Shown here: piece by piece, positions 41,240 through 56,680 of the stretch
How positions within the stretch are numbered: position 1 is the first letter of the stretch
How the letters are laid out: every line of letters begins with the position of its first letter
DNA from: a virus
Taxonomy: Duplodnaviria; Caudoviricetes
IMG/VR virus record: IMGVR_UViG_3300029288_004596
Coordinates: 128,001 to 192,000 of that record
DNA length: 64,000 nt
Direction: 5' to 3' (one strand)
The notes under the pieces: model-generated
Database searches by the model: none
Told to the model about the DNA's origin: nothing
What the model saw: only the letters and a program-made list of their open reading frames with translations
Made by a program: the position numbers and the translations under genes

Positions 41240-44200
41240 ATGGAATATCCTTTCAAGCTTGGAGACAAGATAATAGTTAATCCTCAGGCCCTGTTGGCTC
41301 CTGAGGAACTAGGTTCCCTGCATGCCATAGTCACTGGAGTACAGCTGTACTTGAGTTCTTATAGCTATGATGTGGAACTCCAAGATAACCCTTCTCAGTT
41401 TCTGCCCAACGCCACTATTCCCATGGCCAATGTGGAGTATCTGTCCATGGAAGCGAGTTCAGGCAAGGAGTTTAGGCACCTGCCATTTCCTGGGGACTCG
41501 GTTATGGTAGGGTCTCAGGTCCTTTCAGCTGTCTCAGCTCACTACTTCCTGGATGGACAAGGAGAGATAGCTGGCTCTGTGAGGTGCAATAAAGATGGGG
41601 TTTACTCCAAGCATCAGGTCAAGAATGTTACTGTAATCTCCAGTCTGGAGGAATAATGGCCAGTAAACCAAAAGTGTGTCCTTTTAGAGTAGGAGAGATA
41701 GTGGAATATGCCGGGGGTTTGTGGCATATCGCTTCTATGAAGACTTTTAAGACTACCTATTCTATGTATCTAAGAGAGATGAATGAAAACCTAGGAGACA
41801 TAGCGGCTATCAAGTCAGGTCTGTATGGACGTCTGCGGGAGGTTAAGGATACTGATGAGAAACTTATAATAAGAGCAACCCTCTTTGGACAGAGTTCTAT
41901 AAAGGACTTCTTCTCTGATCATAAGGATGACCATGCTGTGGCTGGGAGCGTTGTGCTTTACAACAATAAGATCCTGACAGTAAATAGAACTAAGGCTCAG
42001 GTCAGATACTCCATAGCGAATGATAAGTTCTTCTTTGATGGCGTAGCCACTCTCAGTGATGGAACCAGATGTTATCTCCATAATCTGTGTGTAATAGGAG
42101 AGGACTTGGAGGAGTAATGCCAAGACCTATCAAGTATCCTCTTCCATGGAAGCCTGGAGATGTATTCTACAAGGATGATCAGCTGGGATATATCTATAAG
42201 ATGGAACTCTATAAGACTGTGGCTTACGCCTGGGGGAAAACTCTATTGTCCACTAACTCTGCGGAGCAGCTTTTTTCCTGGCTCAAGAACGAAAGGGGCG
42301 GAGCCCAGGTCTTCCTCGACTATGTTAAGGATCTTAAGATAAGACCAGCCCGAGTCTGCAACTGCTCCAATCTCCTGGATGTACATCCTATAGATCCTGA
42401 TCACCTAAGGGACTTGGTTCCAGAGTCTTTAATAATACATAATGGTTCTATAGAGGTGGTTAAGCATATTGTTCATCTAATTTATATTAAGAATCCTTTT
42501 GGAGTCCTTGACCTCAAGACTTCCGCACACCTTATAGGTAAGGGAGATTGTTCTATAGAGGGTTGTATTCCATGCTCAGGAGAAGGACAATGGCTGGAGG
42601 AATAGAATATCAGATAGGAGACTTGATTAAGACTCCTGAAACTGTAGGGTACATCAGCAGAACTAAACGCTCTAGAGACGAGTACACTGTGCATATCAGG
42701 AACATGACAAACTTCTCTCCAGACAGGCTTCCCAAAGAAGAGGACTTCCAGGACCTGAGAGTCTTCAGAGCTCTTGCCTACGACTCGACAGCCTTTTATG
42801 TTCCAGAAGCGTTAGAGCATCTTAACATAAAAGGAAGGACCTCTATCATGGATCTAGTTCCTAGAAAAGGAGAGGATAATCTTTTCGTATACCCTGGCAG
42901 TCTAGTGTTGTCCGAGGGCAGAATTTGTGTGGTTACTTCAGTAAGCCATATAATATACAGGAATGATATCGGTCCTGATTCATTGTGCACTTATATAAGA
43001 TGTGAACTTGGGGAGGTCAAAGCCAACAACTTTGTTTTGTTGGAGGACTTGGAGGAATAATGGCTTCTAAGAGAGTGTCCTGTCCTTTCAGGGTAGGAGA
43101 CGTGATAAAATATGAAGGAAGTCCCGCGCATGTAGTTGGAGTAGAGACTTGGAAGACTACCTATTCTATAAGCTACAGGAGATTTACCGCTGCCATAGAG
43201 GACGAACAGACTCTCAGGAGATGCCTCTTTGGTCTGCACTATTGTATAAGGAACGCTGAGAAGGTTAAGATAGAAAAAAGCGATATCCTAGGGCACACTT
43301 CCATAACCAGTCTCTTTGAAGGGGTCAGGCAGCATCCTGTCACAGGAAGCCTTGTGGTGTATGGAGACAAGATGTATTCAGTTTCCCATGTCAGTGTCTA
43401 CGCCCGCATTTACGCAGACGCTTATTATGTGGAAGGCACAGCTAGAATAGATGGAGGTTACAACCATTTTATCAGCAACCTCACTCTTGTGGGAGATGAT
43501 CTAGAGGAATGAAGAATTACAAGTGTCCTTTCAGAGTAGGGGATATAGTAGTCTGCGATGGAATACATGGGATCATCCATTACATGGAGCAGTATAAGAC
43601 TGTGGCTTATTTATGGATCTGGTATGGAGATCATGATAACCTCAAAGATATTTACTGGAATGGCAACTCTTATAAGGTTAGAGTTGACAACCAGCGAACT
43701 ATAGAGAAGAAACCCATGTTTAGCCATAGTTCTTTTTCTGAACTCTATATGGATGCAGAGGACTATCACCCTATGGTTGGGGATCTGGTAATCTCTTCCT
43801 CTGGAATCCATAAGGTCGTCCATACTGACTTGGGAGTCAACATAGTGGATGACACTTTCTATATCAGAGGACATGTTAAGTTAGATAATGGGGATATGGT
43901 AAGGCTTTTTGATGTCTCTTACCTTGCGGGAGGAGACTTGGAAGAATGAGCAAGAAGAGAGTGGTCTGTCCCTTTAGAGTGGGAGATATAGTAGAGTATA
44001 ACAATCGCAAGTATTGTATCACATTCCTGGAGACTTGGAAAACCACCTACTCTATGAGTCTTTTAAAGCTCAACTCGGAGGCCAGGGATGTGGAGGAACT
44101 TAAGAACTTCCTTGGTGGAAGAGCTATTAATCACAGGAATGCTGAAGGATTCCCTATGAAGAAGAGTTCTATACTGGGATACTCCTCTATGCTTGGACTC

Positions 44201-44413
44201 TTCCAGAGCAAGAACTGGGATCGTGAACAGCCAGTGACTGGGGACCTTGTCCTTTTCATGGATAAACTCTTTACAGTGACGTCTACTTATCTGTATGCCG
44301 TCACTTATTCAGGAGCCTTTGATATAGATGGAACTGTGAGAGTTGATGATGAGTATAATTCCAGGCGCTATTTGGAATCTGTTCGGGTGATGGGAGATGA
44401 CTTAGAAGAATGA
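41240..44413 (+). repeat. Tandem paralog array C (7 CDS, duplicated SH3/KOW-like beta domain, ..LEE tail)
   Basis: CDS 41240-41656, 41656-42117, 42117-42605, 42590-43060, 43060-43512, 43509-43949, 43946-44413; (C)PF[RK]VGD.V.Y...E.[WYF]KT.Y...P..G[SD]LV; all end LEE. Confidence 0.85.
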
Positions 44414-44862
44414 CAGATGAATGTTTGATAATGTTGGACTCCATGTTCGCCAAGGTTGAGATTCTCTCTTCTAGCGGAGACTACCTGAGAGCCTCCTCTA
44501 TGTGTGACTCTATAAAGAGACACATAAAGACTCTTCAGAACAGGGTCTCTTCAGTAGCTGGAGGAGCTGGAGCTATCATGGGCGGAGTGGCTGGAATAGC
44601 GGCTCCTGGCATAGGCAATGTGACTGGAGCTATTATAGGAGCTTCCCTCTTCCATTGGTTCTTTAAGTTTATCGTAGGAAGAGGATTGTATTATCCTAAC
44701 ACTATAGAGGAAGTGATAGATCTGGCTTCCTCTCTTCGACTGGAATGCGTGGCTCTCAGGGTAGAGAGCGAACACATGGCAAATGGGGATATTCCAACGA
44801 GAGCTCTTCCCAAGGTGGAAGCTCTAAAGAAATGGGATGCCCTGAAGAAAAAGCTTTTTTAG
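44410..44862 (+). CDS. Glycine-zipper membrane-associated protein
   Basis: GGAGAIMGGVAGIAAPGIGNVTGAIIGA. Confidence 0.55.
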   Translation: MTDECLIMLDSMFAKVEILSSSGDYLRASSMCDSIKRHIKTLQNRVSSVAGGAGAIMGGVAGIAAPGIGNVTGAIIGASLFHWFFKFIVGRGLYYPNTIEEVIDLASSLRLECVALRVESEHMANGDIPTRALPKVEALKKWDALKKKLF

Positions 44863-44870
44863 GAGACGAC

Positions 44871-45224
44871 ATGGAAATCACAGTAATGGGGTCTTTTAAC
44901 TCCCAGACAATCCCTGACACAAAAGACCCAGTAGTCCTCAGGGCTACCAATGAGGGAGTGCAAGTGATAGATACGGCTATATCTTCCAGGCTGGCCAGGA
45001 TAATTATTAAGTGGCTGGACGAGAAGAGAGAAGCTGGATCAACTGACTTATCAGAAGTTGACTCCTGTCCTGTCGGGGACTCTCTGGTCTTCAGGTTTAG
45101 GAGGGTGGCTGGTTATGTCTCTGGGTGGCTGGAGTCCCAGGATGGGGGCAATCCCAAGAGAGCCAAGTTTGATATACTGGCTATGCCTGTAGCAGGCATA
45201 CCGGAACTGCTGAAGCATATATGA
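44871..45224 (+). CDS. Hypothetical protein
   Basis: AGGAG RBS before ATG 44871. Confidence 0.55.
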   Translation: MEITVMGSFNSQTIPDTKDPVVLRATNEGVQVIDTAISSRLARIIIKWLDEKREAGSTDLSEVDSCPVGDSLVFRFRRVAGYVSGWLESQDGGNPKRAKFDILAMPVAGIPELLKHI

Positions 45225-45231
45225 TTGGAGG

Positions 45232-45261
45232 TTGCAAGTAACCTTATAGTAATGCTATAAT
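45232..45261 (+). promoter_or_regulatory. Sigma70-type promoter
   Basis: TTGCAA-18 nt-TATAAT with TGn extension, intergenic, upstream of ssb. Confidence 0.65.
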
Positions 45262-45275
45262 GGGCTTGTGAGAAT

Positions 45276-45674
45276 ATGAATAGCATAGTAGTGATAGGCA
45301 GGGTTACCAAAGAACCCGAATATAAAGCCACTGACAGGAGCGCCTTCTCCTCGTTTACAGTGGCTTCTCACAGAAGAGCTGGCGGAGAGGATGTCACAGA
45401 CTTCTTTGACGTCACCGCATTTGGAAAGAGCGGAGAGTTCGTCTCCAACTATGTGTCCAAGGGAGACCTTGTGTACGTGCAGGGAGAGATGAGACAAAGG
45501 ACTTACACCAATGCGGCTGGAGTTAAAGTCTACTCATGGGGCATAGGCACCAATGTGGTAGAGAAGCTCTCCTCCACCAGGAAACCAGATGAAGACGCTG
45601 AGACCCCAGATGAGGACTTGGCTGAAAGGATGAGCAACTTACTAGGTGACTCGGGAGCAGAGACTAGCCGTTGA
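45276..45674 (+). CDS. ssb: Single-stranded DNA-binding protein
   Basis: MN.IVVIGRVTKEPE...FTVA...TDFFDVTAFGK..E....Y..KGDLVYVQGEM. Confidence 0.92.
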   Translation: MNSIVVIGRVTKEPEYKATDRSAFSSFTVASHRRAGGEDVTDFFDVTAFGKSGEFVSNYVSKGDLVYVQGEMRQRTYTNAAGVKVYSWGIGTNVVEKLSSTRKPDEDAETPDEDLAERMSNLLGDSGAETSR

Positions 45675-46368
45675 ACGAGTTGCGACGGCCCGAGATGACA
45701 AGGAGAAACAAGAAGCTATTGAGAAAGCCGTCAAGGTGTTTGAGCCGCTCATATATCTTACCATAGAGAAGAAAGGCTCTTCCCTGCATGGAGATGACAT
45801 GGCTGATCTTGTGCAGAATGCCAGGATAGTCATATATGATGCGTTAACTAAGTTTGACCAGTCTAAGGGAGTGGAGTTTACCACCTACCTTATCAAATCC
45901 TTGAGGTCTTCCATATCCAGATCGGAGAAGAAGGCCTCTAAGAATCCCTCTGGTCAGGGGAAGAAGTGGGACATAGAAAATGCCACAGACAAATTCATAT
46001 CGGAGAAAGGGAGGTCCCCTGACAGGGCTGAACTCGCAGAGTTTATGGGTTTGTCTCAGGAGCAGTATGACTATGCTGAAGCTATGTCTAAGACTGTGTC
46101 CCATGCTGAGTTCTGCGAGGAGACATTCGCTTCTGATAGCGAAGATATTCTCTTTGAGTCAGACTTTATGGAAGTGTATTCTTCTCTTCCAGAGAAAGTC
46201 CAGACCATAATATCCATGCGAGCTCAGCAATATACATTCTCAGAGATAGGAGAGGCGATGGGACTTTCGGATTCCCAGGTGAGGAATCTGCTGGTCCGAT
46301 ATAGAGACGAGATCTCTAGACTCATGGTGGATAAAGGTTATGAAAAATGGGATTACGATAGTAAATGA
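45646..46368 (+). CDS. RNA polymerase sigma-70 family factor (SigF/FliA-like, regions 2-3-4)
   Basis: DLVQNA...KFDQSKGVEFTTY; GRSP.RAELAEFMG; TFSEIGEAMGLSDSQVR. Confidence 0.85.
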   Translation: MTREQRLAVERVATARDDKEKQEAIEKAVKVFEPLIYLTIEKKGSSLHGDDMADLVQNARIVIYDALTKFDQSKGVEFTTYLIKSLRSSISRSEKKASKNPSGQGKKWDIENATDKFISEKGRSPDRAELAEFMGLSQEQYDYAEAMSKTVSHAEFCEETFASDSEDILFESDFMEVYSSLPEKVQTIISMRAQQYTFSEIGEAMGLSDSQVRNLLVRYRDEISRLMVDKGYEKWDYDSK

Positions 46369-46840
46369 TGGGGTGGATGTCCAGGTTCCCAATGGGGGAA
46401 TTATCTACCTAGATAGCGGTGTTATGGTTATATATCACACAGGAGTGCCTGTAAGTGGCATCTCCGATGGGTGGTCAGGCGCTTGGATTACAACCAGAGA
46501 TTCTCTGCTAGATGTTCTCTCTGATACAGATTATGTTATTAATAAGACTTTCTGTGACATAGACTCGACAACCAGCTATCAGAATATAGTATCTCTTTTT
46601 GGGACATCCCTAAAACCAGGGGATGGCGAGAAGACTCTGGATATCCTGGTGGATTCGGCTCTGGTTCCTCCTGAAGATGTGGCGCAAGAGATTGCCACTC
46701 TCCTTGGGGTCTCTCCAGATGAAGTCTTTGAAGCTATAAAGTTTACTGAGTTTCCTGAGAGAGATGATATCTTGCATGACATCTTGGAACCAGTTATAGA
46801 GCTTTTGTCAAAGGGGGACGATGGCGATGAGGTGCTATAA
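46340..46840 (+). CDS. Acidic hypothetical protein
   Basis: Coupled ORF upstream of JAB gene. Confidence 0.55.
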   Translation: MKNGITIVNDGVDVQVPNGGIIYLDSGVMVIYHTGVPVSGISDGWSGAWITTRDSLLDVLSDTDYVINKTFCDIDSTTSYQNIVSLFGTSLKPGDGEKTLDILVDSALVPPEDVAQEIATLLGVSPDEVFEAIKFTEFPERDDILHDILEPVIELLSKGDDGDEVL

Positions 46841-47579
46841 TAACAAGACTCATAGATATGAGACTATAGACGATCTGACTGGGGCTGTGATTGATACAAA
46901 CCCTATTCCAGTTTCTAAGAAGGATAACAGGACTCCTATTGAGCTTACCTCCATGGACGCCAGACAACTGGTGCCCCATTCAGCTACGCCCAAGTATGAG
47001 TTCTCTCTAGATCCAGGCATTATAGTTTCCAGAGAAGTTTTGCAGAGACTGAGATTTTATATAGGTCTCACAGACACTGAAGTAGGCTGGTATGGACTGG
47101 TCAAGAGGAGAGGGTGGCACTTCTATCTTTATGATGTTTTCCTGCCAGAGCAGGATGTGCACTCCACAACCACTGAACTAACCACTCAGGGTCAGGCTCA
47201 GACTATGAATGACATCATAGCCAAGTATGGGCCTGATGGACCCAATGATCTAAAGTTGTGGGGTCATTCCCATGTCAAGATGGGCACCTCTCCTTCCGGC
47301 CAAGACCAGGATCAGATGGATCAGTTTGAGAAGAATGGAGCTCCCTGGTTTATAAGGCTCATAGCCAATAAGATGGGGAGAATGGAGTTCACTATCTTTG
47401 ACTACAAGCAGCACATAGTGATTTCCGACTGCCCATGGGTGATAGAGGAAACTAAGGACACTGAGTTTGAGAAGGCCATAGCTGAAGAGATGTCCGCTAA
47501 GGTGTTCTCCAAGTCCTATCAGACTTATAACTCTCAGGGTCAGGATTGGTATAAGGGTTATAAAAACTATGGACTTTAA
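46821..47579 (+). CDS. JAB/MPN+ (JAMM) metalloisopeptidase
   Basis: TEVGWYG catalytic Glu and exact HxH-x7-S-x2-D motif HSHVKMGTSPSGQD. Confidence 0.85.
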   Translation: MAMRCYNNKTHRYETIDDLTGAVIDTNPIPVSKKDNRTPIELTSMDARQLVPHSATPKYEFSLDPGIIVSREVLQRLRFYIGLTDTEVGWYGLVKRRGWHFYLYDVFLPEQDVHSTTTELTTQGQAQTMNDIIAKYGPDGPNDLKLWGHSHVKMGTSPSGQDQDQMDQFEKNGAPWFIRLIANKMGRMEFTIFDYKQHIVISDCPWVIEETKDTEFEKAIAEEMSAKVFSKSYQTYNSQGQDWYKGYKNYGL

Positions 47580-48240
47580 CAGGCAACTCTCAGTCCTTGA
47601 TCCGGGGAAAATATATTCTAAGAGAATCGACCTCATAGGAGTTGGGGCTACTGGTTCCTACATAGCCTGGCTCCTGTCTAAGATAGGAGCTGGGTGTCTC
47701 CACCTATGGGATGGGGATGAGGTCTCTGATGTGAATATCTGCAATCAGATGTTCAGGGAAGACCAGGTGGGAAGACCTAAGGTCCTGGCTGTGAGTGAGA
47801 TGATAAAGGCTGGCTCCGGCATCAAGGCCAATATGCACATGCAGATGATTGAAGGCAAGGAAGAGCTGGGGGAGATAGTGTTTCTCCTCACAGACTCCAT
47901 GTCTTCCAGACAGGCAATATGGGACTCTTGCATTAAAGGGTCTTGCTCCCTTATGATAGAGACAAGGATGGGAGCTGATGAGGGACGGGTCTATGCTGTA
48001 GATCCTAAAGACGAGAAACAGTGCGCATGGTGGGAAGCCACCCTGTGCAAGGACGAGGAGGCCCAGGTATCCGCCTGCGGAACTTCTATGTCCATAGCTC
48101 CCACTGCCGCCTTGGTAGCTTCTGTGGCAGTATGGCAGCTAATAAAGTATCTGAATGAAGACTACATAGAACATGGTCTGGTATTCACCACCAAAAATTT
48201 CAATATTTTCGAGCAGAAAGTAGGAGGACGACATGGTTAG
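47569..48240 (+). CDS. ThiF/E1-like adenylating enzyme
   Basis: RQ, IGVGATGS, DGDEV...N..NQ, G.PKV, TDS..SR, ETRMG, candidate catalytic Cys in SACG. Confidence 0.9.
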   Translation: MDFNRQLSVLDPGKIYSKRIDLIGVGATGSYIAWLLSKIGAGCLHLWDGDEVSDVNICNQMFREDQVGRPKVLAVSEMIKAGSGIKANMHMQMIEGKEELGEIVFLLTDSMSSRQAIWDSCIKGSCSLMIETRMGADEGRVYAVDPKDEKQCAWWEATLCKDEEAQVSACGTSMSIAPTAALVASVAVWQLIKYLNEDYIEHGLVFTTKNFNIFEQKVGGRHG

Positions 48241-48436
48241 AATTTATGTTCCTGGAGCGCCAGTGAGAGAGGTTGCTTGGCAGCCTGGCATGACAGTGGC
48301 GGAGGCTTGCTCCGCAGCTGGAATAGTCCCAACAAACTATGATGTGCAGTTGGCTGGTTTCCCAGCTCAGCTGGAAGACACCATAGAGACAGAGGACGAC
48401 GCTATCACCCTGGCCACCAGAATCAAAGGAAACTAG
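48233..48436 (+). CDS. Ubiquitin-like (beta-grasp) protein
   Basis: 67 aa, GMTVAEA...AGI...L.G.PA.LED.I...D.ITL, ends RIKGN; directly after E1. Confidence 0.8.
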   Translation: MVRIYVPGAPVREVAWQPGMTVAEACSAAGIVPTNYDVQLAGFPAQLEDTIETEDDAITLATRIKGN

Positions 48437-48466
48437 CAGTTAACAACTGCTACGCTAGGAGAATCT

Positions 48467-48769
48467 ATGGCTTATAGAATTAGACCTCTGGGGAATTATG
48501 TGGTTATCAAACTACATGAGGAAGCGGAGAAAACTACCGCGGGAGGGATAGTCCTTCCCGCGTCTACTATGCAGAGACCCTCTCTCGCTGAGGTTATGGA
48601 AGTGGGACCGGGTCTCGTGAACATCAATGGCAAGACAATCCCTGTCTGTGTAAGCCCTGGAGACAGCGTGCTCATAAACAGACACGCCCCTGTTGAATGG
48701 GAGCTTCCAGATGGAAGCAAGATTCACATAATACCAGAGGGAGACATAATTGCCATTATCTCAGAGTAG
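48467..48769 (+). CDS. groES: Co-chaperonin GroES
   Basis: IRPLGNYVVI...TAGGIVLP...AEV.EVGPG...V.PGD.V...DIIAII. Confidence 0.92.
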   Translation: MAYRIRPLGNYVVIKLHEEAEKTTAGGIVLPASTMQRPSLAEVMEVGPGLVNINGKTIPVCVSPGDSVLINRHAPVEWELPDGSKIHIIPEGDIIAIISE

Positions 48770-48777
48770 GAGATACT

Positions 48778-50199
48778 ATGGATTATTGTTTTGTGCATGA
48801 GCCTGATGAAGCTAGGCTCAAGGAACTTATGAGATTGTATGATGGCGCTCCCTACTCCCTCTCTGATGGACGGAGGGGGGCGCTCATACCTTGGGATAAG
48901 CTGGACACTTTGTTCCAGAGATTCCTGAATGTGAACTATGACAGTATAACTGAGTCCGGACACAATGGGATAGGTATGCTGGATACTCAGTTGAACTGGG
49001 GAGACAGAGACCCTGCGGCTGTGGCTAGAGTAGTTCAGAGCGAAGAGAAGTTCAGAGCCAAGTGGGGTTTTAGTCTTTCGGAGTGCCAGTCCCAAGCTTC
49101 TTCAGATTATATCAATAAGAAGATGGCCTCCAATCCTGTTATGCAGACTACCTCTAAGGTCGTATCCTGCAACGCTCCTTATGTAGCTTCCGACATGGCT
49201 TATCTTTCTGATGTCATTCAGGCTAAGGTCAACCTGCCAGTGTCAGTGTACTTTGGGAGTTCGCCTCAGAACTTCAGCGGGCTATCTGTCTACTGGAGTC
49301 CCTGCGAGCCTTTGGCTGGGAAGTTTGTGGCTGATGAGATACCAGCTCCTAACGCCAAGTATATATCAGGCACTAAGCCTATAAACGACGCGTCCGGGAA
49401 TCTGATAGCCTGCACCAACTCTTCCCTTATAAGGCTGTTCTTAGTGGCCAACAAGGGGATAGCATATAACCCTTCCATATATGACTACATAGCTGAGAAG
49501 TTTGCGGATATAGTCAAGGAAGAGTGTGGGTCTCTGGATTTGACCACCATCAAGGTTAGGGAACTGGCCAATAGAAGAGCTAAAGCCAGGCTTTCGTCTA
49601 TAGCCTCTGAACTGAAGTCTGAGAGATCCAGGATGGATACTCTTCAGAAAGACTTCATTGAGTCCTGCTCCAAGTACAATGAGAAGCTGGGAATTTACAC
49701 AGACCTCAACTCAGGCAGCACAGAGTATATAGACAACATAGTCAGGAAGGTGTCTTCCATAGCGGCTATTCCAGAAGTCGCTTCCTGGAGATTGGAAGGG
49801 GATAAGCTGGAGTTTTCCACCAAGATGCTTTACGCCTTTGACCCAAGGACTGCTCAGGTCAGGAAGATTGGGGAGATGTTTGTCTCTGTAAACACCTCTG
49901 ATGGTTTCATCAAGGTGACCAATATGTCTTGGACAGTCAGGGGATGCGAGAGCGGAATGCAGGCTCCTCATGTGTTCCCAGATGGAAGACCATGTCTTGG
50001 TCAGCTGGGAACTACCACAGGACCTATGATTGCGGCCATGGACTATGGTCCGTTGGTGTCTTCTATAATAACATATCTTCAGAGTGCCAATGTAGAGGAC
50101 TCGGCTGGCAAGTATGTCCATCGGTGGCCGCTGGCTAATGAGAAAGAAACTGAGGCTTTCAAGGAGAAGTATGCTCATCTATGCTCAATGAAGCCTTAA
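48778..50199 (+). CDS. Coiled-coil protein with C-terminal E2 (ubiquitin-conjugating)-like domain
   Basis: APHVFPDGRPCLG (HPN-like triad then Cys) followed by two helices; AGGAG RBS before ATG 48778; operon context. Confidence 0.7.
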   Translation: MDYCFVHEPDEARLKELMRLYDGAPYSLSDGRRGALIPWDKLDTLFQRFLNVNYDSITESGHNGIGMLDTQLNWGDRDPAAVARVVQSEEKFRAKWGFSLSECQSQASSDYINKKMASNPVMQTTSKVVSCNAPYVASDMAYLSDVIQAKVNLPVSVYFGSSPQNFSGLSVYWSPCEPLAGKFVADEIPAPNAKYISGTKPINDASGNLIACTNSSLIRLFLVANKGIAYNPSIYDYIAEKFADIVKEECGSLDLTTIKVRELANRRAKARLSSIASELKSERSRMDTLQKDFIESCSKYNEKLGIYTDLNSGSTEYIDNIVRKVSSIAAIPEVASWRLEGDKLEFSTKMLYAFDPRTAQVRKIGEMFVSVNTSDGFIKVTNMSWTVRGCESGMQAPHVFPDGRPCLGQLGTTTGPMIAAMDYGPLVSSIITYLQSANVEDSAGKYVHRWPLANEKETEAFKEKYAHLCSMKP

Positions 50200-50507
50200 A
50201 GTATGTGCCTTATGAGGAGGCCCTGGAATTCTCTGAGTCCTTGGGAGCTAGAGAACAGTTCGTGGACATGATGAAGTGTCTGGGGTCCCTCATAAGGGAT
50301 AAAGTCTTGGAGAGCGTTTATTTTTACCCGGCTAAAGGGTACCTGCTTGTTGATATATTCATGGATGACTTTACCCTGCGCCCCATACAGAGCTTCAGCA
50401 GGATGAGCACAGCTGTGCTGGATTACATACTCGCTCAGGGACGCCCAGACAACTTGAAGATATGCATGAGATTTATAAGTAATGGAAGGTTTTATGACTC
50501 GAGATGA
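50181..50507 (+). CDS. Hypothetical protein
   Basis: Coupled ORF. Confidence 0.5.
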   Translation: MLNEALKYVPYEEALEFSESLGAREQFVDMMKCLGSLIRDKVLESVYFYPAKGYLLVDIFMDDFTLRPIQSFSRMSTAVLDYILAQGRPDNLKICMRFISNGRFYDSR

Positions 50508-52917
50508 AGTGCTAGAACAAGCGATTGAGTATTTTAATGGGGATGAACTGGCTGCCCAGGTCTTCCTCAAGTATGCCCTGCAGGATTCGGAGACCTATTA
50601 TGAAGGGTCCCCAAGCGAAGCTCTGGATAGATATGCCAGAGAGATACACAGAATAGAATCCAGGTATCCCAATCCGTTATCCTATGACAGGATAAGACAT
50701 ATGCTGGACAGGTATGAGAGATACATACTTGGAGGTTCCCCCATGGCTGGGGTAGGGAACAACTATCTTGGGATGTCCTTATCCAACTGTGTAGTCAGCC
50801 CGTCTCCTAAGGATTCCATATCGGGGATCTTTGATGTAGGCAAGAAGCTAGCTATCTGGTTCTCCAGAAGGTGCGGGGTAGGGAGTAATATCTCCACACT
50901 GAGACCTGATGGATTCCCAGTCTCCAATGCGGCCAAGACCTCTACTGGGGCTTGGTCCTTTGTGGAACTGCTATCTAATATCTGCGGGAAGATAGGTCAG
51001 AACAATAGAAGAGGAGCCCTTTTAGTGGGCATGGAAGATTGGCATCCAGATATCCTAAAGTTTATAACCTGCAAGATAGATGTCACTAAGATAACCAATG
51101 CCAATATATCAGTCATGTTGTCTGACGCTTTCATGAAAGCTGTGGAGATGGACGGAACATGGGATCTTGTATGGGATGGGAAAGTGGTAGAGACTATTAA
51201 GGCCAGAGACATGTGGAACCTTATAGTGACCACAGCCACCAAGACTGCTGAGCCAGGTATACTTTTCTGGGACACTTATAAGAGGAGGAATCCTCTTAAT
51301 GAATATCCTGGATTTGAAATGATATGTACAAATCCTTGTTCCGAACTTGGATTGGGAAGTGGTGGAGCTTGCATGCTATCGTCTCTGAACCTTAAGGGCT
51401 TTGTCAGAGACCCTTATACTGAAGGCGCCACTTTTAACTATTCCATGTATGAGTCCTATGTCATGGACGCTGTGAGAATCATGGATGACCTTATAGATTT
51501 GGAACTAGAAGCTCTAGATAGGATTATAAAGTCTACCTCGGAAGACTCCAGAGATATCTTTGAGCTTATGGCTGATGTATTCAGGAAAGGCAGAAGAATA
51601 GGTCTTGGGATCACTGGTTTGGCTGATGCCTTGGTTGGGATTGGAGTCAAGTATGGTTCTGTAGAGTCTCTTGATGTGGTAGAGAATATAATAAGAACTC
51701 ATAGGGATGCGGCCTATAGGTCCAGCATTCAACTAGGTAGAGAAAGAGGAGTGTTCCCAGCGTTTGACTGGGATATAGAGAAGGATAATGAGTTCCTGAA
51801 ATCTCTCTCTCCGGACTTATATAATGACATCTCTTCCTGTGGAAGAAGACATGGAGCTTTGCTCACTATTCCTCCTGTAGGTTCAGGTTCTCAGTTAGGC
51901 AGGTGCTCTACTGGAATAGAACCTATATACAGAAGGTCTTATATAAGAAGGAAGAAGTCTACTCCTGGAGAAAGAATAGATAGCGTAGATTCTCAAGGGA
52001 TCAAGTGGACTAACTACATGGTCATTCACCCCTCCCTCCTTGAGTGCGCTTTAAAACATGGATACTCCAGAGAAGATGTGGAAGTTTATCTCTCTGGCAA
52101 GGGGAGTAACCCTGAACTAGAAAAACTGTTGAGCGCGTTTGTTTCCTCAGATGAGATAGACTGGATGGACAGAGTAAAAGTACAGTCTGTACTAACTCAG
52201 TATTTAGACCATGGTTGTTCCTCCACAATAAATCTTCCAGCTGGAACTTCTTCTGAAGTAGTAGGCAACATATACATGGAGTCCTACAAACAAGGACTTA
52301 AGGGAGTGACAGTGTATGTGGATGGATCCAGAGATGGGGTCCTGCTGAGCAAGGAGCCAGACAAGGATTGGTTCCACAGACCTAAGGAACTTTTCTGTGA
52401 TATTCACTGCGTGGAAGCTGTGGTGGATAAGGTAAAGAAAAGATTCGTGGTTATAGTAAGCTTCAAGTCAGGAATTCCCTTTGAGGTATTTGGAGGCGCT
52501 TATGATGACTCAGAAATCTCTGAGGAGTTTCCTCCATTTGTCAAAGGAAAGATTATCCCAGGAAAAGTAGTCAAGCATAAAAGAGAGTCTGGGAGCAGAT
52601 ATGAACTGCAGATAGAAGGGGATGGAGTAGTCCACTCATTAGGCAAAGAGTTCCATAGAGGAACCACCGCTGGGTGGAACAAACTTATCTCTCTTTCCCT
52701 GAGATCTCAGCCAGATAACTTGCCTCATGTGGTAGACCAGTTATCCTCAGACTCTGATGTGGCTGGCTATTCAAAGGCAGTTTCTAGAGTTCTTAAGAAG
52801 TATGTGGAGGATGGAGCTATCTCTGGAGGAAGATGCGAGAACTGTGGGCAGAAGACTTTAGTGTACGAAGCCGGGTGTTGCATCTGCACCTCCTGTTCTT
52901 ATAGCGGTTGCAGTTGA
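50482..52917 (+). CDS. nrdJ: Class II (adenosylcobalamin-dependent) ribonucleotide reductase
   Basis: LSNC, QNNRRGA, HPDI..FI, NANISV, AEPGILF, TNPCSE, RRIGLG, S.GIEP, SSTINLP, KGVTVY.DGSR; C-terminal Zn ribbon; no adjacent NrdB. Confidence 0.88.
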   Translation: MEGFMTRDEVLEQAIEYFNGDELAAQVFLKYALQDSETYYEGSPSEALDRYAREIHRIESRYPNPLSYDRIRHMLDRYERYILGGSPMAGVGNNYLGMSLSNCVVSPSPKDSISGIFDVGKKLAIWFSRRCGVGSNISTLRPDGFPVSNAAKTSTGAWSFVELLSNICGKIGQNNRRGALLVGMEDWHPDILKFITCKIDVTKITNANISVMLSDAFMKAVEMDGTWDLVWDGKVVETIKARDMWNLIVTTATKTAEPGILFWDTYKRRNPLNEYPGFEMICTNPCSELGLGSGGACMLSSLNLKGFVRDPYTEGATFNYSMYESYVMDAVRIMDDLIDLELEALDRIIKSTSEDSRDIFELMADVFRKGRRIGLGITGLADALVGIGVKYGSVESLDVVENIIRTHRDAAYRSSIQLGRERGVFPAFDWDIEKDNEFLKSLSPDLYNDISSCGRRHGALLTIPPVGSGSQLGRCSTGIEPIYRRSYIRRKKSTPGERIDSVDSQGIKWTNYMVIHPSLLECALKHGYSREDVEVYLSGKGSNPELEKLLSAFVSSDEIDWMDRVKVQSVLTQYLDHGCSSTINLPAGTSSEVVGNIYMESYKQGLKGVTVYVDGSRDGVLLSKEPDKDWFHRPKELFCDIHCVEAVVDKVKKRFVVIVSFKSGIPFEVFGGAYDDSEISEEFPPFVKGKIIPGKVVKHKRESGSRYELQIEGDGVVHSLGKEFHRGTTAGWNKLISLSLRSQPDNLPHVVDQLSSDSDVAGYSKAVSRVLKKYVEDGAISGGRCENCGQKTLVYEAGCCICTSCSYSGCS

Positions 52918-52926
52918 ACCCACCAC

Positions 52927-52960
52927 AGGGGAGTCCCTTTATGGGGCTCCTCTTTTTTTT
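52927..52960 (+). terminator. Rho-independent terminator
   Basis: GGGGAGTCCC-TTTAT-GGGGCTCCTC hairpin followed by T8. Confidence 0.85.
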
Positions 52961-52970
52961 GGAGTAGATC

Positions 52971-53285
52971 ATGGTCAATATGGTAGTTGTCTATGGGGTC
53001 ATAGGCGAGGAACCCACGGAAGTAATCAGCAGAAACAATGTGAGGATAGTGTCCTCCAAGCTGAGCATAGAAACCAAGGGGAAATTTCATTCCCTGGAGA
53101 TAAAGTGCTTTGGGGATACGGCCTCTTCTTTAGCTTGTCTTGTGGTAGGGACTCCTGTTATAATACAAGGGAGACTTGATGTTTCCGAGTGGGAGTACAT
53201 GGGCAAGCAGTACTCCAAGATAGCCCTTGTGACCACCGATATAACAGTGGTTGGAAGGGCCGCTGAAGATCCATGGGAGGTCTAG
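52971..53285 (+). CDS. Second, short SSB-like OB-fold protein
   Basis: N.VVVYG.IGEEP...IKCFG..A...G..VIIQGRL...W. Confidence 0.75.
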   Translation: MVNMVVVYGVIGEEPTEVISRNNVRIVSSKLSIETKGKFHSLEIKCFGDTASSLACLVVGTPVIIQGRLDVSEWEYMGKQYSKIALVTTDITVVGRAAEDPWEV

Positions 53286-54728
53286 ATGGATTCTCCATAC
53301 AGGTTTGAGACGTGCCCTTATTGCTGGGGACGCGGCAAGATTATTGGTTCCACTACTTCAGCCACATACAGTATTCACCCCAGCCTATATATTCAGTGTG
53401 GTCATTGCCAAGGCTCGGGACAAGTTTTAGTCAGAAGTTCTGAGGATGACTATGAGGAATGAAGGTTTTCTTTACAGGTTTAATGAGAACTCTGTGAAGT
53501 GCTCTTACTGTGGAGGGGAAGGTTATCTTAACCCAGCATATAAAGCTGTCATTGGGAATATGAAACCTGTGGATATTCCATGCCCAATGTGCTGTGGCAG
53601 CGGGTGGATTAACTTGGAGGAGGAGACGCTCCATGGCAATTATGAAGAGTAAGGTTTGTCCTAGATGCTATGGCACAGGATCTGGCTATACAAGCGTTTC
53701 TACCACTATCTCTACTACCGCTGGCACAACATGCACCTTTGGACCAACGATCTGTCCTCTATGCGAAGGGGATGGAGTTATATATGTTAAGGACGCTAAG
53801 CTAGGTAATGTAGTTACTGTAGTTGAAGAAGAGAACTATGAGGAGTGAGCCTGTCAAGTGCCCCAACTGTCATGGGATGGGAGTAAAGATAGTGAACTTC
53901 AAGGTTCTTAAAGACTTATTAGAAGGAAAAATAAAACCTCCTCCAGGATCTGAGTTATTTAAGAAGTGTGAAGAGTGTGACGGTTCTGGGATCATGAATA
54001 TAAACCATAGCTGGGAGGAGTAGCCATGAAGGCCAAGAAATGTCCTATCTGCCAAGGGACCAAGGTAATCTTTGGCTACGTGGCCACAAGCATTTACTCT
54101 GTGGATTTTACCGTCTCCCCTGTATCTATTGGAACTGCTTCCATTCAACGCCCTTGCTCCTTCTGCGAGGGGATTGGAGAGGTGTATGTCCTGTCTAAGG
54201 ACGAGAGCTATGAAGAGTAGGTGTCCAGCCTGCGATGGAACTGGCATATCTGTGGTTAATGAAGACGCCTTGGAGAATTTGTTCACTGGCAAACCTGTGT
54301 CTAGGGATGTCACTATATTTGAGAAGTGTCCGGTCTGCAATGGCTCTGGGGATGCCGAGGAATACAACTGGGAGGAATAGTCCTATGAGGAGTGAAAAGT
54401 GCCCCAGATGTGGAGGCAGAGGAATAATCCTAGAAAAAGGTTATGTTAACGATTATATTATCTACTCCACCACTGTATCTTATACCTCCTGGACCTGCAT
54501 GGAGTGCAAGGGAACTGGACATATTCAGGTGGAGGAAGAGGATTGGGAGGAGTAGTTTTCAGAGCATGCCCAGCCTGCGGAGGTTCTGGAATAGCTTGCC
54601 AGTATGACTCAGATAAGCGCTTCACTAATATTATACAGTGTCCATACTGTAGTGGTTTCGGCAATATTATAATAGAAGGCATCAAGGATATGGTTGAGAT
54701 TTCTAAGGAGGAGAACTGGGAGGAATAA
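53286..54728 (+). repeat. Tandem array D (8 CDS, DnaJ-type CxxCxGxG zinc-finger mini-proteins, ..EE tail)
   Basis: CDS 53286-53462, 53452-53652, 53642-53848, 53838-54023, 54026-54220, 54210-54380, 54385-54555, ~54543-54728; two CxxCxGx[GK] motifs each; all end [YW]EE. Confidence 0.88.
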
Positions 54729-55099
54729 TGTTTCTAGTGATGGCGTACAGGTGGGGGATTATTAATGAACACCATTATATAGTAGGCCTCTTCTCCAACA
54801 AGGAGATAGCCATGGATCAAGCCAAGGATCATGTAGGCTACAGAGGAGGGAAGTACTCTTGTGTAGTTTATGATATAATCCCTGATATAGATTTATCCCA
54901 GGCGGACAGGGTATATGAGCAGATTGGCTACTTTGGAATCTATAAGGAAGACACTAAACTGGACTACAGCGAGGTGGACTTGCAGGCTACAGGCATAGGG
55001 TATGAGATCCTGCGTAGCGAAGAGGATAAACCTTTGTGGTTGATTAGTATTATACAGAAGGTGAAAGAGCGTGTCAGTCTCAGACTTAGAGGTCTATGA
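54728..55099 (+). CDS. Hypothetical phage protein
   Basis: AYRWG...H.Y.VG.FS...A...RGGKY pattern. Confidence 0.6.
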   Translation: MFLVMAYRWGIINEHHYIVGLFSNKEIAMDQAKDHVGYRGGKYSCVVYDIIPDIDLSQADRVYEQIGYFGIYKEDTKLDYSEVDLQATGIGYEILRSEEDKPLWLISIIQKVKERVSLRLRGL

Positions 55100-55391
55100 T
55101 TTTCTCTCCAGGGATTCTTATTGTTGTATTCCTAATGGATGGAGAGAACTGGTAGGAGAGATGTACAGGAGACTCCTGCAGCTGGACCCGGATGTCAATA
55201 TGCTGGAGGTCAAGGAGAAGTTTGGGATACTCAGGATTGTAGTCACAGGTTCTGAAGTAAACACTGATTATATAACAGATATGTATGAGAATATATCCAG
55301 GAGGACCTGCTCTGTCTGCGGTAAACCAGGGAAACTTACCAGTAGATCAGGCTGGTATATAACTATTTGTGAGGAGTGTGAAAGACCATGA
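55071..55391 (+). CDS. Conserved phage protein with C-terminal Zn ribbon
   Basis: GW..LV...VKEKFG.LR...S..TCSVCGKPG...GW..T.C..C. Confidence 0.7.
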   Translation: MSVSDLEVYDFLSRDSYCCIPNGWRELVGEMYRRLLQLDPDVNMLEVKEKFGILRIVVTGSEVNTDYITDMYENISRRTCSVCGKPGKLTSRSGWYITICEECERP

Positions 55392-55987
55392 GTCATGCCA
55401 CGTGCCTTGTCATTGTGCCGGAGGATACTGAGGATGTCCAGCTTGCGGCGGAAGAGTTAATGGAGTCTTACTGGGAGGAGCTGGAAGTGGAGTCTCACCT
55501 AGATGAGTGCTGGTGTCTTGGTTCCCTGGCTAGGGATAGGATGTACAAGGAAGCTGAAGCTCTCCCCTTTAACGATAATGCCACTAAGTGGGATTGGGTG
55601 CAGGAACATCTGGCTGAAGCCGTGGATAAGGACTGGCCTGATCCAGAGTGTGACAACTGCCATGGGGTGGGACGTTACATGTCCACTAGCAACCCCGATG
55701 GGAAGTGGGACTGGTTCACCATAGGAGGCAGATGGGCTGGAGCGCTTTATGACAAAGAGGGCGAACAGTTTGATGAAAACCTAGGGGCAAATTCCAGGAA
55801 GGTCTCTGAGATAACCACTAGGATATTTCATTCAGTGATCACCCCTGATGGAGAGTGGCACGAGAGCGCTACTCTTGGATGGTTTGGCATAACCAGGAAT
55901 GAGAATACTTCCTGGGATGAAGAACTTGAGAGTATACTAAAAGAGTACAAGGATTGCATAGGAGTCCTAGTGGACTTCCACTGCTGA
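55388..55987 (+). CDS. Conserved phage protein
   Basis: MSH...LV...NPDGKWDW..IGGRW.G...VITPDGEWHE...GWFG...VDFH. Confidence 0.7.
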   Translation: MSHATCLVIVPEDTEDVQLAAEELMESYWEELEVESHLDECWCLGSLARDRMYKEAEALPFNDNATKWDWVQEHLAEAVDKDWPDPECDNCHGVGRYMSTSNPDGKWDWFTIGGRWAGALYDKEGEQFDENLGANSRKVSEITTRIFHSVITPDGEWHESATLGWFGITRNENTSWDEELESILKEYKDCIGVLVDFHC

Positions 55988-55996
55988 GGAGGATAT

Positions 55997-56431
55997 ATGA
56001 ATATAGCTAAGGCCATGAAGGTCAAGAATAGAAACGTAGCCAGAATCAAGAAGATCCTAGGGGATGTCCAGAAGTGGAACTCCGTGAGAGTTGGAGAAGA
56101 CGTCCCTGTGGATGTGACTAGTCTCTGGAAAGATCTTAAGATAGAGATAGACAACCTCATAGAGATTAAGACCAAGATAGCCAAGGCCACTGATCCTATA
56201 AGGGATAAGCTTATAAGGCTTGCCGAACTAAAGTCTTTCATCAGTCTCATCTCTTACCTGGATACTACTTCAGGCAAGATCTATAAGAGGAAGTCCTCTA
56301 CAGATGAGGTCCCTGAGTATGCGGCTGCTATTTCAGCCACAGAACTCAATGGGACTATAGAGGCTCTTCAGAAAGGCATTGATAGTCTTCAGGATGACAT
56401 AGATGAATTCAATGCTAAGACCAGTCTTTAA
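55997..56431 (+). CDS. Helical/coiled-coil protein (DIP1984-like pattern)
   Basis: MNIAKA.K.KNR...L..IKT.I..A...LAELK...ID.LQD.ID.FNA.T. Confidence 0.55.
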   Translation: MNIAKAMKVKNRNVARIKKILGDVQKWNSVRVGEDVPVDVTSLWKDLKIEIDNLIEIKTKIAKATDPIRDKLIRLAELKSFISLISYLDTTSGKIYKRKSSTDEVPEYAAAISATELNGTIEALQKGIDSLQDDIDEFNAKTSL

Positions 56432-56670
56432 GCAGAACTAAAAACTCTGCCTGAGCAGGGGTCAAGTTTTTCTTGACTCCTGGGGTGTGCGGTTGGGTCA
56501 TTAGGTGTTGAAACCACCTTGGATCGTCGGTTACTTTATAGTGGCTGATGCTTATCAGGATGCTTCAGGATTCCGATCCTTTAAAGTTCAAAGCTTATAT
56601 AATGGAGCTCCTATTAAAAGGCATAGGCTGATTCCTTAAACCTTGGCTGACTCAACCCACCCCAAACTTC
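56432..56670 (+). ncRNA. Candidate structured ncRNA
   Basis: Non-coding gap with hairpin CAGGGGGTCAAG/CTTGACTCCTG and long-range stem GGGGTG..GGTTGGGTCA (56482-56500) / TGACTCAACCCACCCC (56648-56663) enclosing further hairpins. Confidence 0.55.
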
Positions 56671-56680
56671 GGGAGATAAT

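Follow-up and report, generated by a model that had tools for sequence, protein, structure and literature searches.

The window (the whole 64,000-nt stretch of DNA analysed here) derives from an uncultured 217-kb phage, whose genome of 216,899 bp is 93% complete. Between positions 46821 and 50199, on the + strand, lie tightly coupled ORFs for a JAB peptidase, an E1-like enzyme, a ubiquitin-like protein (Ubl), a GroES co-chaperonin and an E2-like protein, all five confirmed where a reading made from the letters alone (henceforth the sequence-only reading) had called them. Together, four of these linked genes resemble a full set of components for tagging proteins in the manner of ubiquitin. The features of the region are as follows, numbered by position in the window.

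45232..45261, + strand: the region's best match to a sigma-70-like promoter (to consensus only), upstream of the SSB gene
46340..46840, + strand: 166-aa ORF, sharing 20 nt with the start of the JAB gene
46821..47579, + strand: JAB/JAMM metallopeptidase, 252 aa, with an intact E...HSHx7SxxD motif
47079-47081, + strand: JAB catalytic Glu87 of the JAMM motif
47265-47306, + strand: JAB HSH...SxxD of the JAMM motif
47569..48240, + strand: minimal single-domain ThiF-type E1 adenylyltransferase, 223 aa (Pfam ThiF)
47638-47655, + strand: E1 GxGxxG
48076-48078, + strand: E1 invariant Cys170, aligned with ThiF Cys184
48233..48436, + strand: pro-Ubl, 67 aa, SAMP2/ThiS-like beta-grasp (profile and AF2 model)
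48428-48430, + strand: Gly66, predicted end of the mature Ubl
48431-48433, + strand: Asn67, the Ubl cap
48467..48769, + strand: GroES co-chaperonin, 100 aa (Cpn10, E 3e-20), between the Ubl and E2-like genes
48778..50199, + strand: E2-like protein, 473 aa, with a variable N-terminal region, a long helix (residues 258-312) and a C-terminal UBC-fold domain
49720..50142, + strand: UBC (E2)-fold domain, residues ~315-455 (predicted fold and profile)
49963-50001, + strand: E2-like motif APHVFPDGRPCLG
49993-49995, + strand: invariant Cys406 at the E2 catalytic position, after the P397-H398 motif
50181..50507, + strand: 108-aa ORF, sharing 19 nt with the stop end of the E2-like gene
52927..52953, + strand: strongest hairpin resembling an intrinsic terminator (11-bp stem and T run), immediately downstream of the class II RNR gene

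The JAMM motif of the peptidase reads GHSHVKMGTSPSGQD, and its Glu87, His149, His151, Ser159 and Asp162 are invariant across seven homologues. Pfam alone gives a weak match (Prok-JAB, E 0.098). A profile of the homologues matches Rpn11 (E 0.004) and Pyrococcus JAMM1, the SAMP2 protease (5ld9_A, E 0.006), with the motif aligned in both cases, so the call of a JAB with an intact JAMM motif is borne out. The E1 consists of one ThiF domain spanning residues 14–214 (Pfam ThiF, E 2.6e-21), and its profile aligns over the full length of E. coli ThiF (E 6.7e-12), placing Cys170 on Cys184; these two results uphold its assignment as ThiF/E1. GxGxxG, Asp48, Lys71 and Asp109 are invariant among the homologues aligned. 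Two of its features count against a role in conjugation: all seven homologues have Asn in place of the Arg in the ATP-binding motif NxxRQ, and the protein lacks a Cys domain, a UFD, the Zn site and any CxxC pair.

The Ubl ends R-I-K-G-N-stop. The sequence-only reading had noted this ending, and the identity of the protein is confirmed by a profile match to SAMP2 (5lda_B, E 2.7e-7; also to MoaD, TtuB and ThiS) and by an AF2 model (pLDDT 89) with a beta-grasp fold, at TM 0.6–0.75 to TtuB, SAMP1, SUMO and ubiquitin. Database sources label some of the homologues ‘sulfur carrier protein ThiS’. None of the 31 Ubl sequences examined terminates in Gly: each has 1–17 residues past it (including forms with GG and a cap) or a second Ubl copy head-to-tail. 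Most homologues end in Asn, while many others end in GA, GGR, GGKK or GGNA or carry 12–17 residues after GN; in locus L008, Ala takes the place of Gly before the extra residues. The consistent lack of a terminal Gly argues for trimming by the JAB. In a characterised counterpart, BilC cuts BilA at Gly97|Ala98, and BilA that retains Ala98 yields no conjugates (PMC10557695). The earlier proposal that the JAB removes the final Asn thus gains comparative support, from the capped relatives and from this precedent; we predict that the JAB trims the pro-Ubl after Gly66, and it probably also takes the Ubl off its targets.

The E2-like gene starts at ATG 48778, with AGGAG 7 nt upstream, directly after the GroES stop; the mechanical maximum for this frame is a 500-aa ORF from 48697. 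The predicted model is mostly above pLDDT 90 over residues 270–465 (block means 86–98), and the secondary-structure order of the domain fits UBC (helix, antiparallel sheet, active-site loop, C-terminal helices). Nearly all of the top ~30 PDB matches found by Foldseek are E2s, the best being UbcH7 (6cp2_B, E 9e-3, probability 0.98). VIA gave Z 7.0 against Ubc13 (114 residues, rmsd 3.5) and, in a search not leaning on Foldseek, Z 6.9 against UBE2S, its alignments to E2s spanning 114–120 residues; a Z of ~7 falls short of the 8 that the tool itself treats as comfortable. ESM Atlas structure rows for the protein include Prok-E2_D and UQ_con. When a profile of eight C-terminal domains was compared with PDB sequences, the top six matches were E2s (E-values 0.05–0.7; UBE2A, E 0.046), and in the UBE2A alignment, which covered the whole E2 core, Cys406 coincided with the catalytic Cys of Rad6/UBE2A. 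Across 150 family members Cys406 never varies and His398, eight residues before it, is near-invariant; no conserved His follows Cys406 among these 150. The position of the HPN triad reads A-P-H, and N438 and D441 sit within a PNxxD-like segment.

Eukaryotic E2s (Ubc13, UBE2S, UBE2A/Rad6) are the best structural matches and, by sequence profile, the only matches in the PDB, with a structural Z of ~7 over ~115 of 150 residues and with the catalytic Cys, G-x-x-C-L and the PNxxD-like segment aligned, whereas identity is 10–18%, Pfam UQ_con does not match, HPN reads x-P-H, and there are extra sheet strands and ~310 extra N-terminal residues. The family comprises at least 571 cluster representatives (E<=1e-30) and has no entry in Pfam, PHROGs, NCBIfam or PADLOC; the Pfam E2 families (UQ_con, Prok-E2_A to E) did not match any of 62 members even at E<=5, nor did UQ_con match anywhere in the phage genome. 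The carrier enzyme thus belongs to an uncatalogued family. The fold matches, the UBE2A alignment and the fact that E1, JAB and Ubl genes strictly accompany the family, moderate as each is, together support assigning the C-terminal ~140 residues to the E2 (UBC) fold, as the sequence-only reading had suspected in what was the riskiest of its component calls; the Foldseek comparison proposed with that reading recovered this fold on the predicted model, and the model of the Ubl is a beta-grasp. In loci L006 and L009 there are also Cys-less E2-like paralogues, seen only beside a Cys-bearing copy in the manner of UEV/E2 pairs, and these tandem copies recall the UEV/Mms2 partners of Ubc13.

Homologues of each of the four genes are mutually adjacent in 10 of 10 loci (nine phage-like and one cellular), with gene order shuffled, an association beyond chance. 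In the first seven loci they were the only genes common to all and came in five different orders; three further, more distant loci hold all four as well, and there is no fifth gene common to the ten. The cassette recurs in large phage contigs (179–207 kb) from different samples. It is not exclusively viral, since at least one locus (L010) presents the same four-gene module in the context of a cellular chromosome. Among the phages examined, replication/recombination gene blocks, and not accessory islands, surround the module: exactly between Mre11-like and Rad50-like genes in L005 and L011, beside helicase and DNA polymerase genes in L004 and, in the window, between SSB/sigma factor and RNR genes in one tightly coupled gene string. 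In L006 the module has an Apyc1-like anti-defence gene ~3 kb upstream, so conflict genes are present in that neighbourhood. Locus comparison places GroES and both flanking ORFs outside the conserved module; the 166-aa and 108-aa ORFs have no family match and are not conserved beside it at other loci. The GroES gene (Cpn10) is indeed present between the Ubl and E2-like genes, as first described, but as a mere neighbour. A candidate transcription unit, SSB-sigma-JAB-E1-Ubl-GroES-E2-RNR, may run from the promoter match at 45232..45261 to the hairpin at 52927..52953.

Taken with the folds and families of the four proteins, their catalytic motifs and the Ubl cap, this strict linkage upholds the description of a complete JAB-E1-Ubl-E2 operon, each component call being backed by profile or fold searches and by co-occurrence. 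We consider it likely that these genes form a self-contained, phage-carried cascade for conjugating the Ubl to proteins; all of its reactions, the direction in which the Ubl is passed on and its targets are what we infer. The Ubl would be made as a precursor ending Gly66-Asn67, from which the JAB/JAMM peptidase would take the cap, exposing Gly66. The minimal E1, probably a MoeB/ThiF-type homodimer, would adenylate Gly66 with ATP and may then form a thioester on the invariant Cys170, before the Ubl is handed to Cys406 of the E2-like protein. The latter would transfer it, with no separate E3, to lysines of target proteins, its long helix and lineage-variable N-terminal region probably serving in dimerisation and target choice, and the JAB could also reverse the mark. 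Counting against conjugation, no E3 or target for such a cascade could be identified. Since SSB, sigma factor and ribonucleotide reductase genes share its gene string, co-expression of the cassette with the replication genes is most likely, as is action inside infected cells, where host or phage non-structural proteins would be tagged, in preference to a part in virion assembly.

To our knowledge, ubiquitin-style tagging machines of this kind have so far been studied in bacteria only as anti-phage defence. Among them the Bil systems (BilABCD, types I and II) are bacterial ISG15-like anti-phage operons (PMC10557695). Like them, the cassette combines Ubl, E2, JAB and E1 in one operon with no E3, its Ubl bears a short cap past the reactive Gly (removed by the JAB in Bil and predicted to be so here), and a thioester relay from E1 to E2 is expected in both. 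BilD, however, is an E1 of several domains, comprising inactive as well as active adenylation domains along with a mobile Cys domain and a Zn site (PMC10557695), unlike the single 223-aa ThiF domain found here. In BilB a conserved His follows the Cys (C138...H151), whereas here P-H precedes the Cys by eight residues, the order of the classical HPN. The 473-aa E2 with its long helix and variable N-terminal region also sets the cassette apart, as does a SAMP2/ThiS-like Ubl carried by phages in replication gene blocks. With its single-domain E1 and different E2 motif, the cassette would work in a Bil-like manner yet is no member of Bil. Type II CBASS Cap2/Cap3, a system of prokaryotic conflict, shares the E1, E2 and JAB chemistry, but Cap2 is an E2-E1 fusion acting on the CD-NTase of its own operon, whereas here E1 and E2 are separate genes, SMODS/CD-NTase has no match in the phage genome, and the substrate is a dedicated beta-grasp Ubl and not the C-terminus of an enzyme. 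Matches of the PADLOC Cap2 models are confined to the Rossmann segment of the E1 (residues 15–109, E 3.6e-13), and no PADLOC or NCBIfam defence-system model reaches threshold on the cassette. The PRTRC cassette (TIGR03734-03742), in which a PRTRC-type ThiF accompanies ParB and PRTRC A-E partners, was rejected: TIGR03736 scored 26.8 bits against a cut-off of 144.75 and the other six proteins had no PRTRC match.

The same chemistry could serve a defensive purpose, as a Bil-like weapon of the phage or the cell that tags the virion proteins of competing phages (superinfection exclusion), in place of host takeover or self-regulation. The anti-phage role of Bil and Cap2/Cap3 (PMC10557695), the cellular context of L010 and the Apyc1-like gene of L006 would all suit such a role; its recurrence in 179–207 kb phage contigs from different samples and its position in replication/recombination blocks (SSB/sigma-RNR here; L004, L005, L011), away from accessory islands, make this unlikely.

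We regard as more improbable still an E2-independent system like SAMP or TtuB, in which the E1 alone would activate the Ubl, conjugation or transfer would need no thioester on the 473-aa protein, and that protein would be a non-catalytic adaptor or scaffold of UBC/RWD fold. By sequence, archaeal SAMP2/UbaA/JAMM1 and Thermus TtuB/TtuC hold the closest relatives of the Ubl, JAMM1 is one of the two best JAB matches, and the E1 is similarly small and single-domain; the SAMP2 and TtuB systems work without an E2, RWD-fold proteins (Knl1, Spc24/25, RWDD3) appear in the fold lists at Z 5–6.5, and there are the Cys-less paralogues of L006 and L009. Here, however, an E2-fold partner is always linked and the Ubl is always capped, in place of the free Gly-Gly end of SAMP/TtuB. 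Cys406, invariant on the E2 catalytic position, has E2-like flanks (G-x-x-C-L, and N438/D441 in the PNxxD-like segment), and the Cys-less copies occur only beside a Cys-bearing one.

SAMP/TtuB Ubls double as sulfur carriers. The Ubl here might instead be adenylated by the E1 and become a thiocarboxylate that donates sulfur for thiolation of tRNA, nucleotides or cofactors, with the Cys of the 473-aa protein in a persulfide relay. The Ubl profile matches to MoaD, TtuB and ThiS, the ‘ThiS’ labels and the best NCBIfam E1 matches (ThiF and MoeB) point that way, although all NCBIfam scores are far under their cut-offs (ThiF 61.8 vs 275; SAMPActivE1UbaA 21.7 vs 450). Searches of the whole genome, with positive controls, gave no match to ThiG, MoaE, PP-loop ATP_bind_3 (TtuA/NcsA type) or rhodanese, which extends to all 216,899 bp the lack of ThiG and MoaE first noted near the cassette. 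With no fifth gene common to the ten loci, and a constant partner of UBC fold, which we do not know from sulfur relays, this reading is highly improbable. Microcin C is matured by MccB through a succinimide, the peptide, whose terminal Asn is obligatory, being bound by an N-terminal clamp on MccB. Conversion of the Ubl's terminal Asn into a protein-AMP phosphoramidate by this route is scarcely credible: most homologues do end in Asn and MccB is among the better PDB matches of the E1 profile (E 2.4e-11), but that match is limited to the Rossmann segment (residues 10–97), the 223-aa bare ThiF domain has no room for the clamp, the variety of Ubl endings means that Asn is neither terminal nor conserved, Gly being conserved instead, and the JAB and E2-like partners are left unexplained.

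Under the conjugation reading, the phage would tag host or viral proteins, reversing the usual direction of such systems, as the sequence-only reading had proposed. More tentatively, large phages may routinely carry their own Ubl conjugation machine, with the E2 selecting substrates through its fast-evolving N-terminal region, and tagging during the replication phase directed at factors of the host for defence, proteolysis or DNA-end processing, or at the phage's own replication/recombination proteins. If true, a virus would here be turning ubiquitin-type signalling to its own use within bacterial cells, as a mirror image of defence by Bil and CBASS. Just one phage combination of a Ubl and a JAB peptidase has long been described, namely lambda/T1 TAPI (Ubl) and TAPK (JAB+NlpC), for which cleavage is predicted after the C-terminal Gly of the Ubl (PMC1779556); that pair lies in the tail gene cluster with no E1 or E2, whereas here the full activation and transfer set stands among replication genes.

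The window comes from a viral contig of 216,899 bp (completeness estimate 93%), and the genes around the cassette all lie on the plus strand, with neighbours overlapping or nearly abutting.

Genes in and around the cassette
45276-45674, +, SSB, directly 5' of the cassette region
45646-46368, +, sigma-70-family protein, after SSB and directly 5' of the cassette region
46340-46840, +, 166-aa ORF, no match in Pfam, PHROGs, PADLOC or NCBIfam
46821-47579, +, JAB peptidase
47569-48240, +, ThiF-type E1
48233-48436, +, ubiquitin-like protein (Ubl)
48467-48769, +, GroES
48778-50199, +, E2-like protein, 473 aa
50181-50507, +, 108-aa ORF, no match in the same four databases
50482-52917, +, class II ribonucleotide reductase (RNR)

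Each cassette gene is present in a single copy in this genome. The start codon of the 473-aa protein at 48778 has AGGAG 7 nt 5' of it, and the database gene call agrees. The best promoter-like match lies ahead of the whole gene string, at 45232-45261, and the strongest hairpin of terminator type lies after it, at 52927-52953; the number of such consensus matches is not above chance. A perfect palindrome with an 8-bp stem (48434-48452) runs from the Ubl stop codon into the 30-nt gap before GroES; it is unlike a terminator in having no T run, and may serve RNA processing or stability.

The sequence-only reading had seen in this string an apparently complete, virus-encoded ubiquitin-like conjugation operon. 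The observation is confirmed, and its interpretation is supported as far as computation can show. The JAB alone gives a weak Pfam match (E 0.098); the JAMM motif, described as intact, is however invariant across seven homologues (E87...H149-S-H151-x7-S159-x-x-D162), and in the matches of the homologue profile to Rpn11 (E 0.004) and to Pyrococcus JAMM1 (E 0.006) it is in register. The E1, likewise correctly recognized, matches Pfam ThiF (E 2.6e-21), and the profile built from seven homologues matches E. coli ThiF over the full length (E 6.7e-12), placing an invariant Cys170 on ThiF Cys184; GxGxxG, Asp48, Lys71 and Asp109 are also invariant. One departure is the Arg of the NxxRQ motif, replaced by Asn in 7/7 homologues (residues 56-60 read N-x-x-N-Q in the family and N-x-x-R-Q in ThiF, MoeB and Uba1), and a family-specific invariant Arg133 (in E-T-R-M-G) might substitute for this lost ATP-binding residue. 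A second departure is that a Zn-binding CxxC pair, a Cys domain and a UFD are all missing. The protein is the smallest possible E1. At one locus (L004:3165-3834) a frameshift, which is genuine or stems from the assembly, divides the E1 into overlapping ORFs of 153 and 83 aa; jointly these cover the family. The profile of the Ubl (nine sequences) matches Pyrococcus SAMP2 (E 2.7e-7), PF1061, Haloferax SAMP2, RnfH, MoaD and TtuB, and its AF2 model (pLDDT 89) shows TM values of 0.6-0.75 to TtuB, SAMP1, SUMO2 and ubiquitin.

Tracing homologues of the 473-aa protein to other contigs provided further loci. An all-versus-all comparison of seven neighbourhoods (the window, two contigs obtained by identity look-up and four IMG/VR contigs of 28-207 kb) found exactly four gene families common to them and no others, namely E1, JAB, Ubl and the E2-like protein, in changing order.

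Order of the cassette genes
Window: JAB-E1-Ubl-(GroES)-E2
L001: E2-Ubl-JAB-E1
L004: Ubl-E2-JAB-E1
L005: E2-JAB-E1-Ubl
L006: as L005, with two tandem E2-like genes
L008: Ubl-E1-E2-JAB

Three more distant family members that were looked up showed E2-JAB-E1-Ubl in each case, bringing the four-gene linkage to 10/10 loci. GroES and the coupled 166-aa and 108-aa ORFs, missing from the other nine loci, were ruled out as members of the module. Large uncultured phages carry the full enzyme set as a stable and widespread trait. The description of the set as virus-encoded holds for the viral contig, which carries all four genes, and does not hold as an exclusive property, since the same module occurs on the cellular contig L010. 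It occupies L010:1982-7040, between recR/ybaB on one side and a block of ribosomal protein genes, secY and adk on the other, and its E2-like protein has 1072 aa. Comparison of the region with 50,697 GenBank phage records by blastn gave no match; in tblastn, neither the E2-like protein of the window nor P0007, the best member of its family, gave one.

The composition of the module bears on a possible sulfur-carrier role, in which the E1 and Ubl would serve sulfur transfer. Beyond the ThiS/MoaD ancestry of the Ubl this role finds no support: the noted lack of ThiG, MoaE and other sulfur-transfer genes nearby extends to the whole genome, from which ThiG, MoaE, PP-loop (ATP_bind_3) and rhodanese proteins are all absent (controls were positive), and no fifth gene travels with the cassette.

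In the preferred reading, conjugation, the 473-aa protein would act as an E2. It has no match in Pfam, PHROGs, PADLOC or NCBIfam, and when 62 members of its family were scanned at thresholds of E<=0.001 and E<=5, no E2 family and nothing significant emerged, the weak scattered matches resembling coiled-coil noise. At E<=1e-3 an exhaustive profile search recovered 3211 cluster representatives, a number that falls to 571 at E<=1e-30; as the protein contains a long helix, the latter is the safe figure and is taken here as the minimum family size. Most Atlas clusters of the family are viral. Gly365, Cys406 and Pro451 are invariant in 150 members, and Pro397, His398, Gly403, Gly408, Asn438, Asp441, Gly444 and Trp450 nearly so. 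The AF2 model built on this 150-member alignment is mostly above pLDDT 90 over residues 270-465 (block means 86-98) and presents a helix, a six-stranded meander, a loop with P-H...C and four helices, in this order.

Structure comparisons of this model agree with the E2-like domain that had been proposed. The first 30 rows of Foldseek against the PDB are almost only E2 enzymes (best UbcH7, E 9e-3, prob 0.98), and VIA-align superimposes model residues 317-452 on residues 4-142 of Ubc13 (Z 7.0, 114 residues, rmsd 3.5). A VIA search of 48,161 representative chains, made without reliance on Foldseek, again places an E2 on top (UBE2S, Z 6.9), similar Z values being reached otherwise only by RWD-fold kinetochore domains and where a single helix pairs with the 257-314 helix. 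Prok-E2_D and UQ_con clusters are among the results of an ESM Atlas structure search. Against PDB sequences, the full-length family profile gave coiled-coil noise only, and the isolated C-terminal domain profile (eight loci) was the only one to retrieve E2s, which are its best six matches (UBE2A, E 0.046). The UBE2A alignment covers E2 residues 11-131 and sets a-P-H-v-f-x-x-G-x-a-C-l-G on F-H-P-N-V-Y-A-D-G-S-I-C-L-D, so that Cys406 falls on the catalytic Cys; Asn438 and Asp441 are within the segment matching the PNxxD(P) stretch of E2s and presumably correspond to UbcH5 Asn114 and Asp117. Each line of evidence for an E2 is moderate by itself; together with the gene context they are mutually consistent.

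An invariant Cys at the catalytic position is not readily explained if the protein is a non-catalytic scaffold of UBC or RWD fold. Cys-less copies do occur, as tandem second genes (L006:6583-7944 and L009:1-300) that keep the P-H motif and have Val or Ile at the catalytic site; both directly adjoin a Cys-bearing copy, recalling the UEV/Mms2 partners of Ubc13. In its N-terminal half the putative E2 varies between lineages, and this part is therefore the obvious candidate for selecting targets.

The end of the Ubl suggests how the tag would be prepared. As had been read, the window's protein terminates in R-I-K-G-N, and homologues end in KGN, VGN, QGN, RGN, EGN, KAN, KGA, SGA, AGAC, GGR, GGA, GGKK, GGNA or GGNK, some with 12-17 extra residues after KGN (basic tails of 17 and 12 residues in L005:8430-8690 and L011:10771-11013). 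One gene (L007:1026-1451) encodes a head-to-tail di-Ubl with both units ending in KGA, resembling a polyubiquitin precursor, and one sequence (P0161), possibly truncated, ends short of the terminal motif. In 0/31 Ubl sequences examined was Gly terminal. A conserved Gly or Gly-Gly always followed by other residues is, as a sequence pattern, the signature of a precursor needing trimming. There is experimental precedent in the bacterial Bil operon, where BilC cuts BilA at the Gly97-Ala98 bond and BilA that retains Ala98 yields no conjugates (PMC10557695). The same pattern, Gly conserved and the residues after it variable, argues against MccB-type chemistry with the terminal Asn as the active residue.

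Among described systems, the cassette works like Bil but fails two of its defining features. Both combine Ubl, E2, JAB and E1, lack an E3 and have a capped Ubl; however, the cassette's E1 is a bare ThiF domain whereas BilD is multidomain, and its conserved His precedes the Cys, like the classical HPN, whereas that of BilB follows it. It is not Cap2/Cap3 of type II CBASS, because there is neither a fusion nor a CD-NTase, nor PRTRC, whose ThiF model it matches at a score of only 26.8 (cut-off 144.75). The constant presence of an E2 rules out SAMP-type sampylation as well. New relative to known prokaryotic E1-E2-JAB-Ubl operons are the uncatalogued E2 family, the minimal E1 and carriage by viruses. 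To our knowledge, ubiquitin-type conjugation in prokaryotes has been demonstrated so far only as host-encoded anti-phage defence (Cap2/Cap3, Bil) or archaeal sampylation. In the literature searched, whose coverage is incomplete so that one may exist, no description of such a cassette in a phage came up; a 2006 survey of prokaryotic ubiquitin-like systems described, for phages, no Ubl-JAB pairs other than those of lambda/T1 tail assembly, which have neither E1 nor E2 (PMC1779556).

The neighbourhoods point to action in the replication phase. In two unrelated contigs (L005:4337-11054 and L011:6875-11942) the cassette sits exactly between the genes of an Mre11-like Metallophos phosphoesterase and a Rad50/SbcC-like AAA_23/SMC_N ATPase, i.e. 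the position of T4 gp47/gp46; in L004 it adjoins helicase and DNA polymerase A genes, in the window it lies between SSB/sigma and RNR, and in none of the loci is it among structural genes. If active, it would give phages a private tag for post-translational rewiring of the infected cell or of their own replication machinery. It would also offer a minimal E1-E2 pair (223 aa plus a domain of about 140 aa) in which to study E2 recruitment that involves neither a UFD nor a Cys domain, and one more point of evidence on the age of the classical E2 active site.

Some other features of the carriers deserve mention. On the 207-kb phage contig L006, a gene for an Apyc1-like anti-Pycsar metallo-beta-lactamase (1927-2769; Pfam, E 3.8e-24) lies about 2.2 kb 5' of the cassette. 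In the window, KOW-like and Zn-finger mini-proteins on either side of the cassette (41240-57888) have [L/Y/W]EE C-termini, an ending absent from every cassette protein. An array of 75 mini-protein genes occupies 23872-37761, and its inspected members end in Gly (...RC.YG, ...YG, ...HG); as the genome encodes an E1, one idea is that they are candidate substrates for adenylation by it. No comparable array adjoins the cassette in L001, the one carrier whose small flanking ORFs were read.

A JAB-E1 pair only distantly related to the cassette occurs in the cultured Bacteroides phage crAss001 (MH675552.1, 81394-83792), about 4 kb from a B12-dependent RNR. Here gp77 (Prok-JAB, E 5e-4) adjoins gp76, a ThiF protein with a 160-residue N-terminal extension; the two are annotated as metalloprotease and thiamine biosynthesis protein, and the cassette's Ubl and E2 profiles have no match at this locus. 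Xanthomonas and Erwinia jumbo phages (e.g. Xanthomonas phage PhiXhv-12) carry a related E1 labelled thiamine biosynthesis. In practical terms, "thiamine biosynthesis protein" is a wrong label for the E1 genes of such cassettes in deposited phage genomes.
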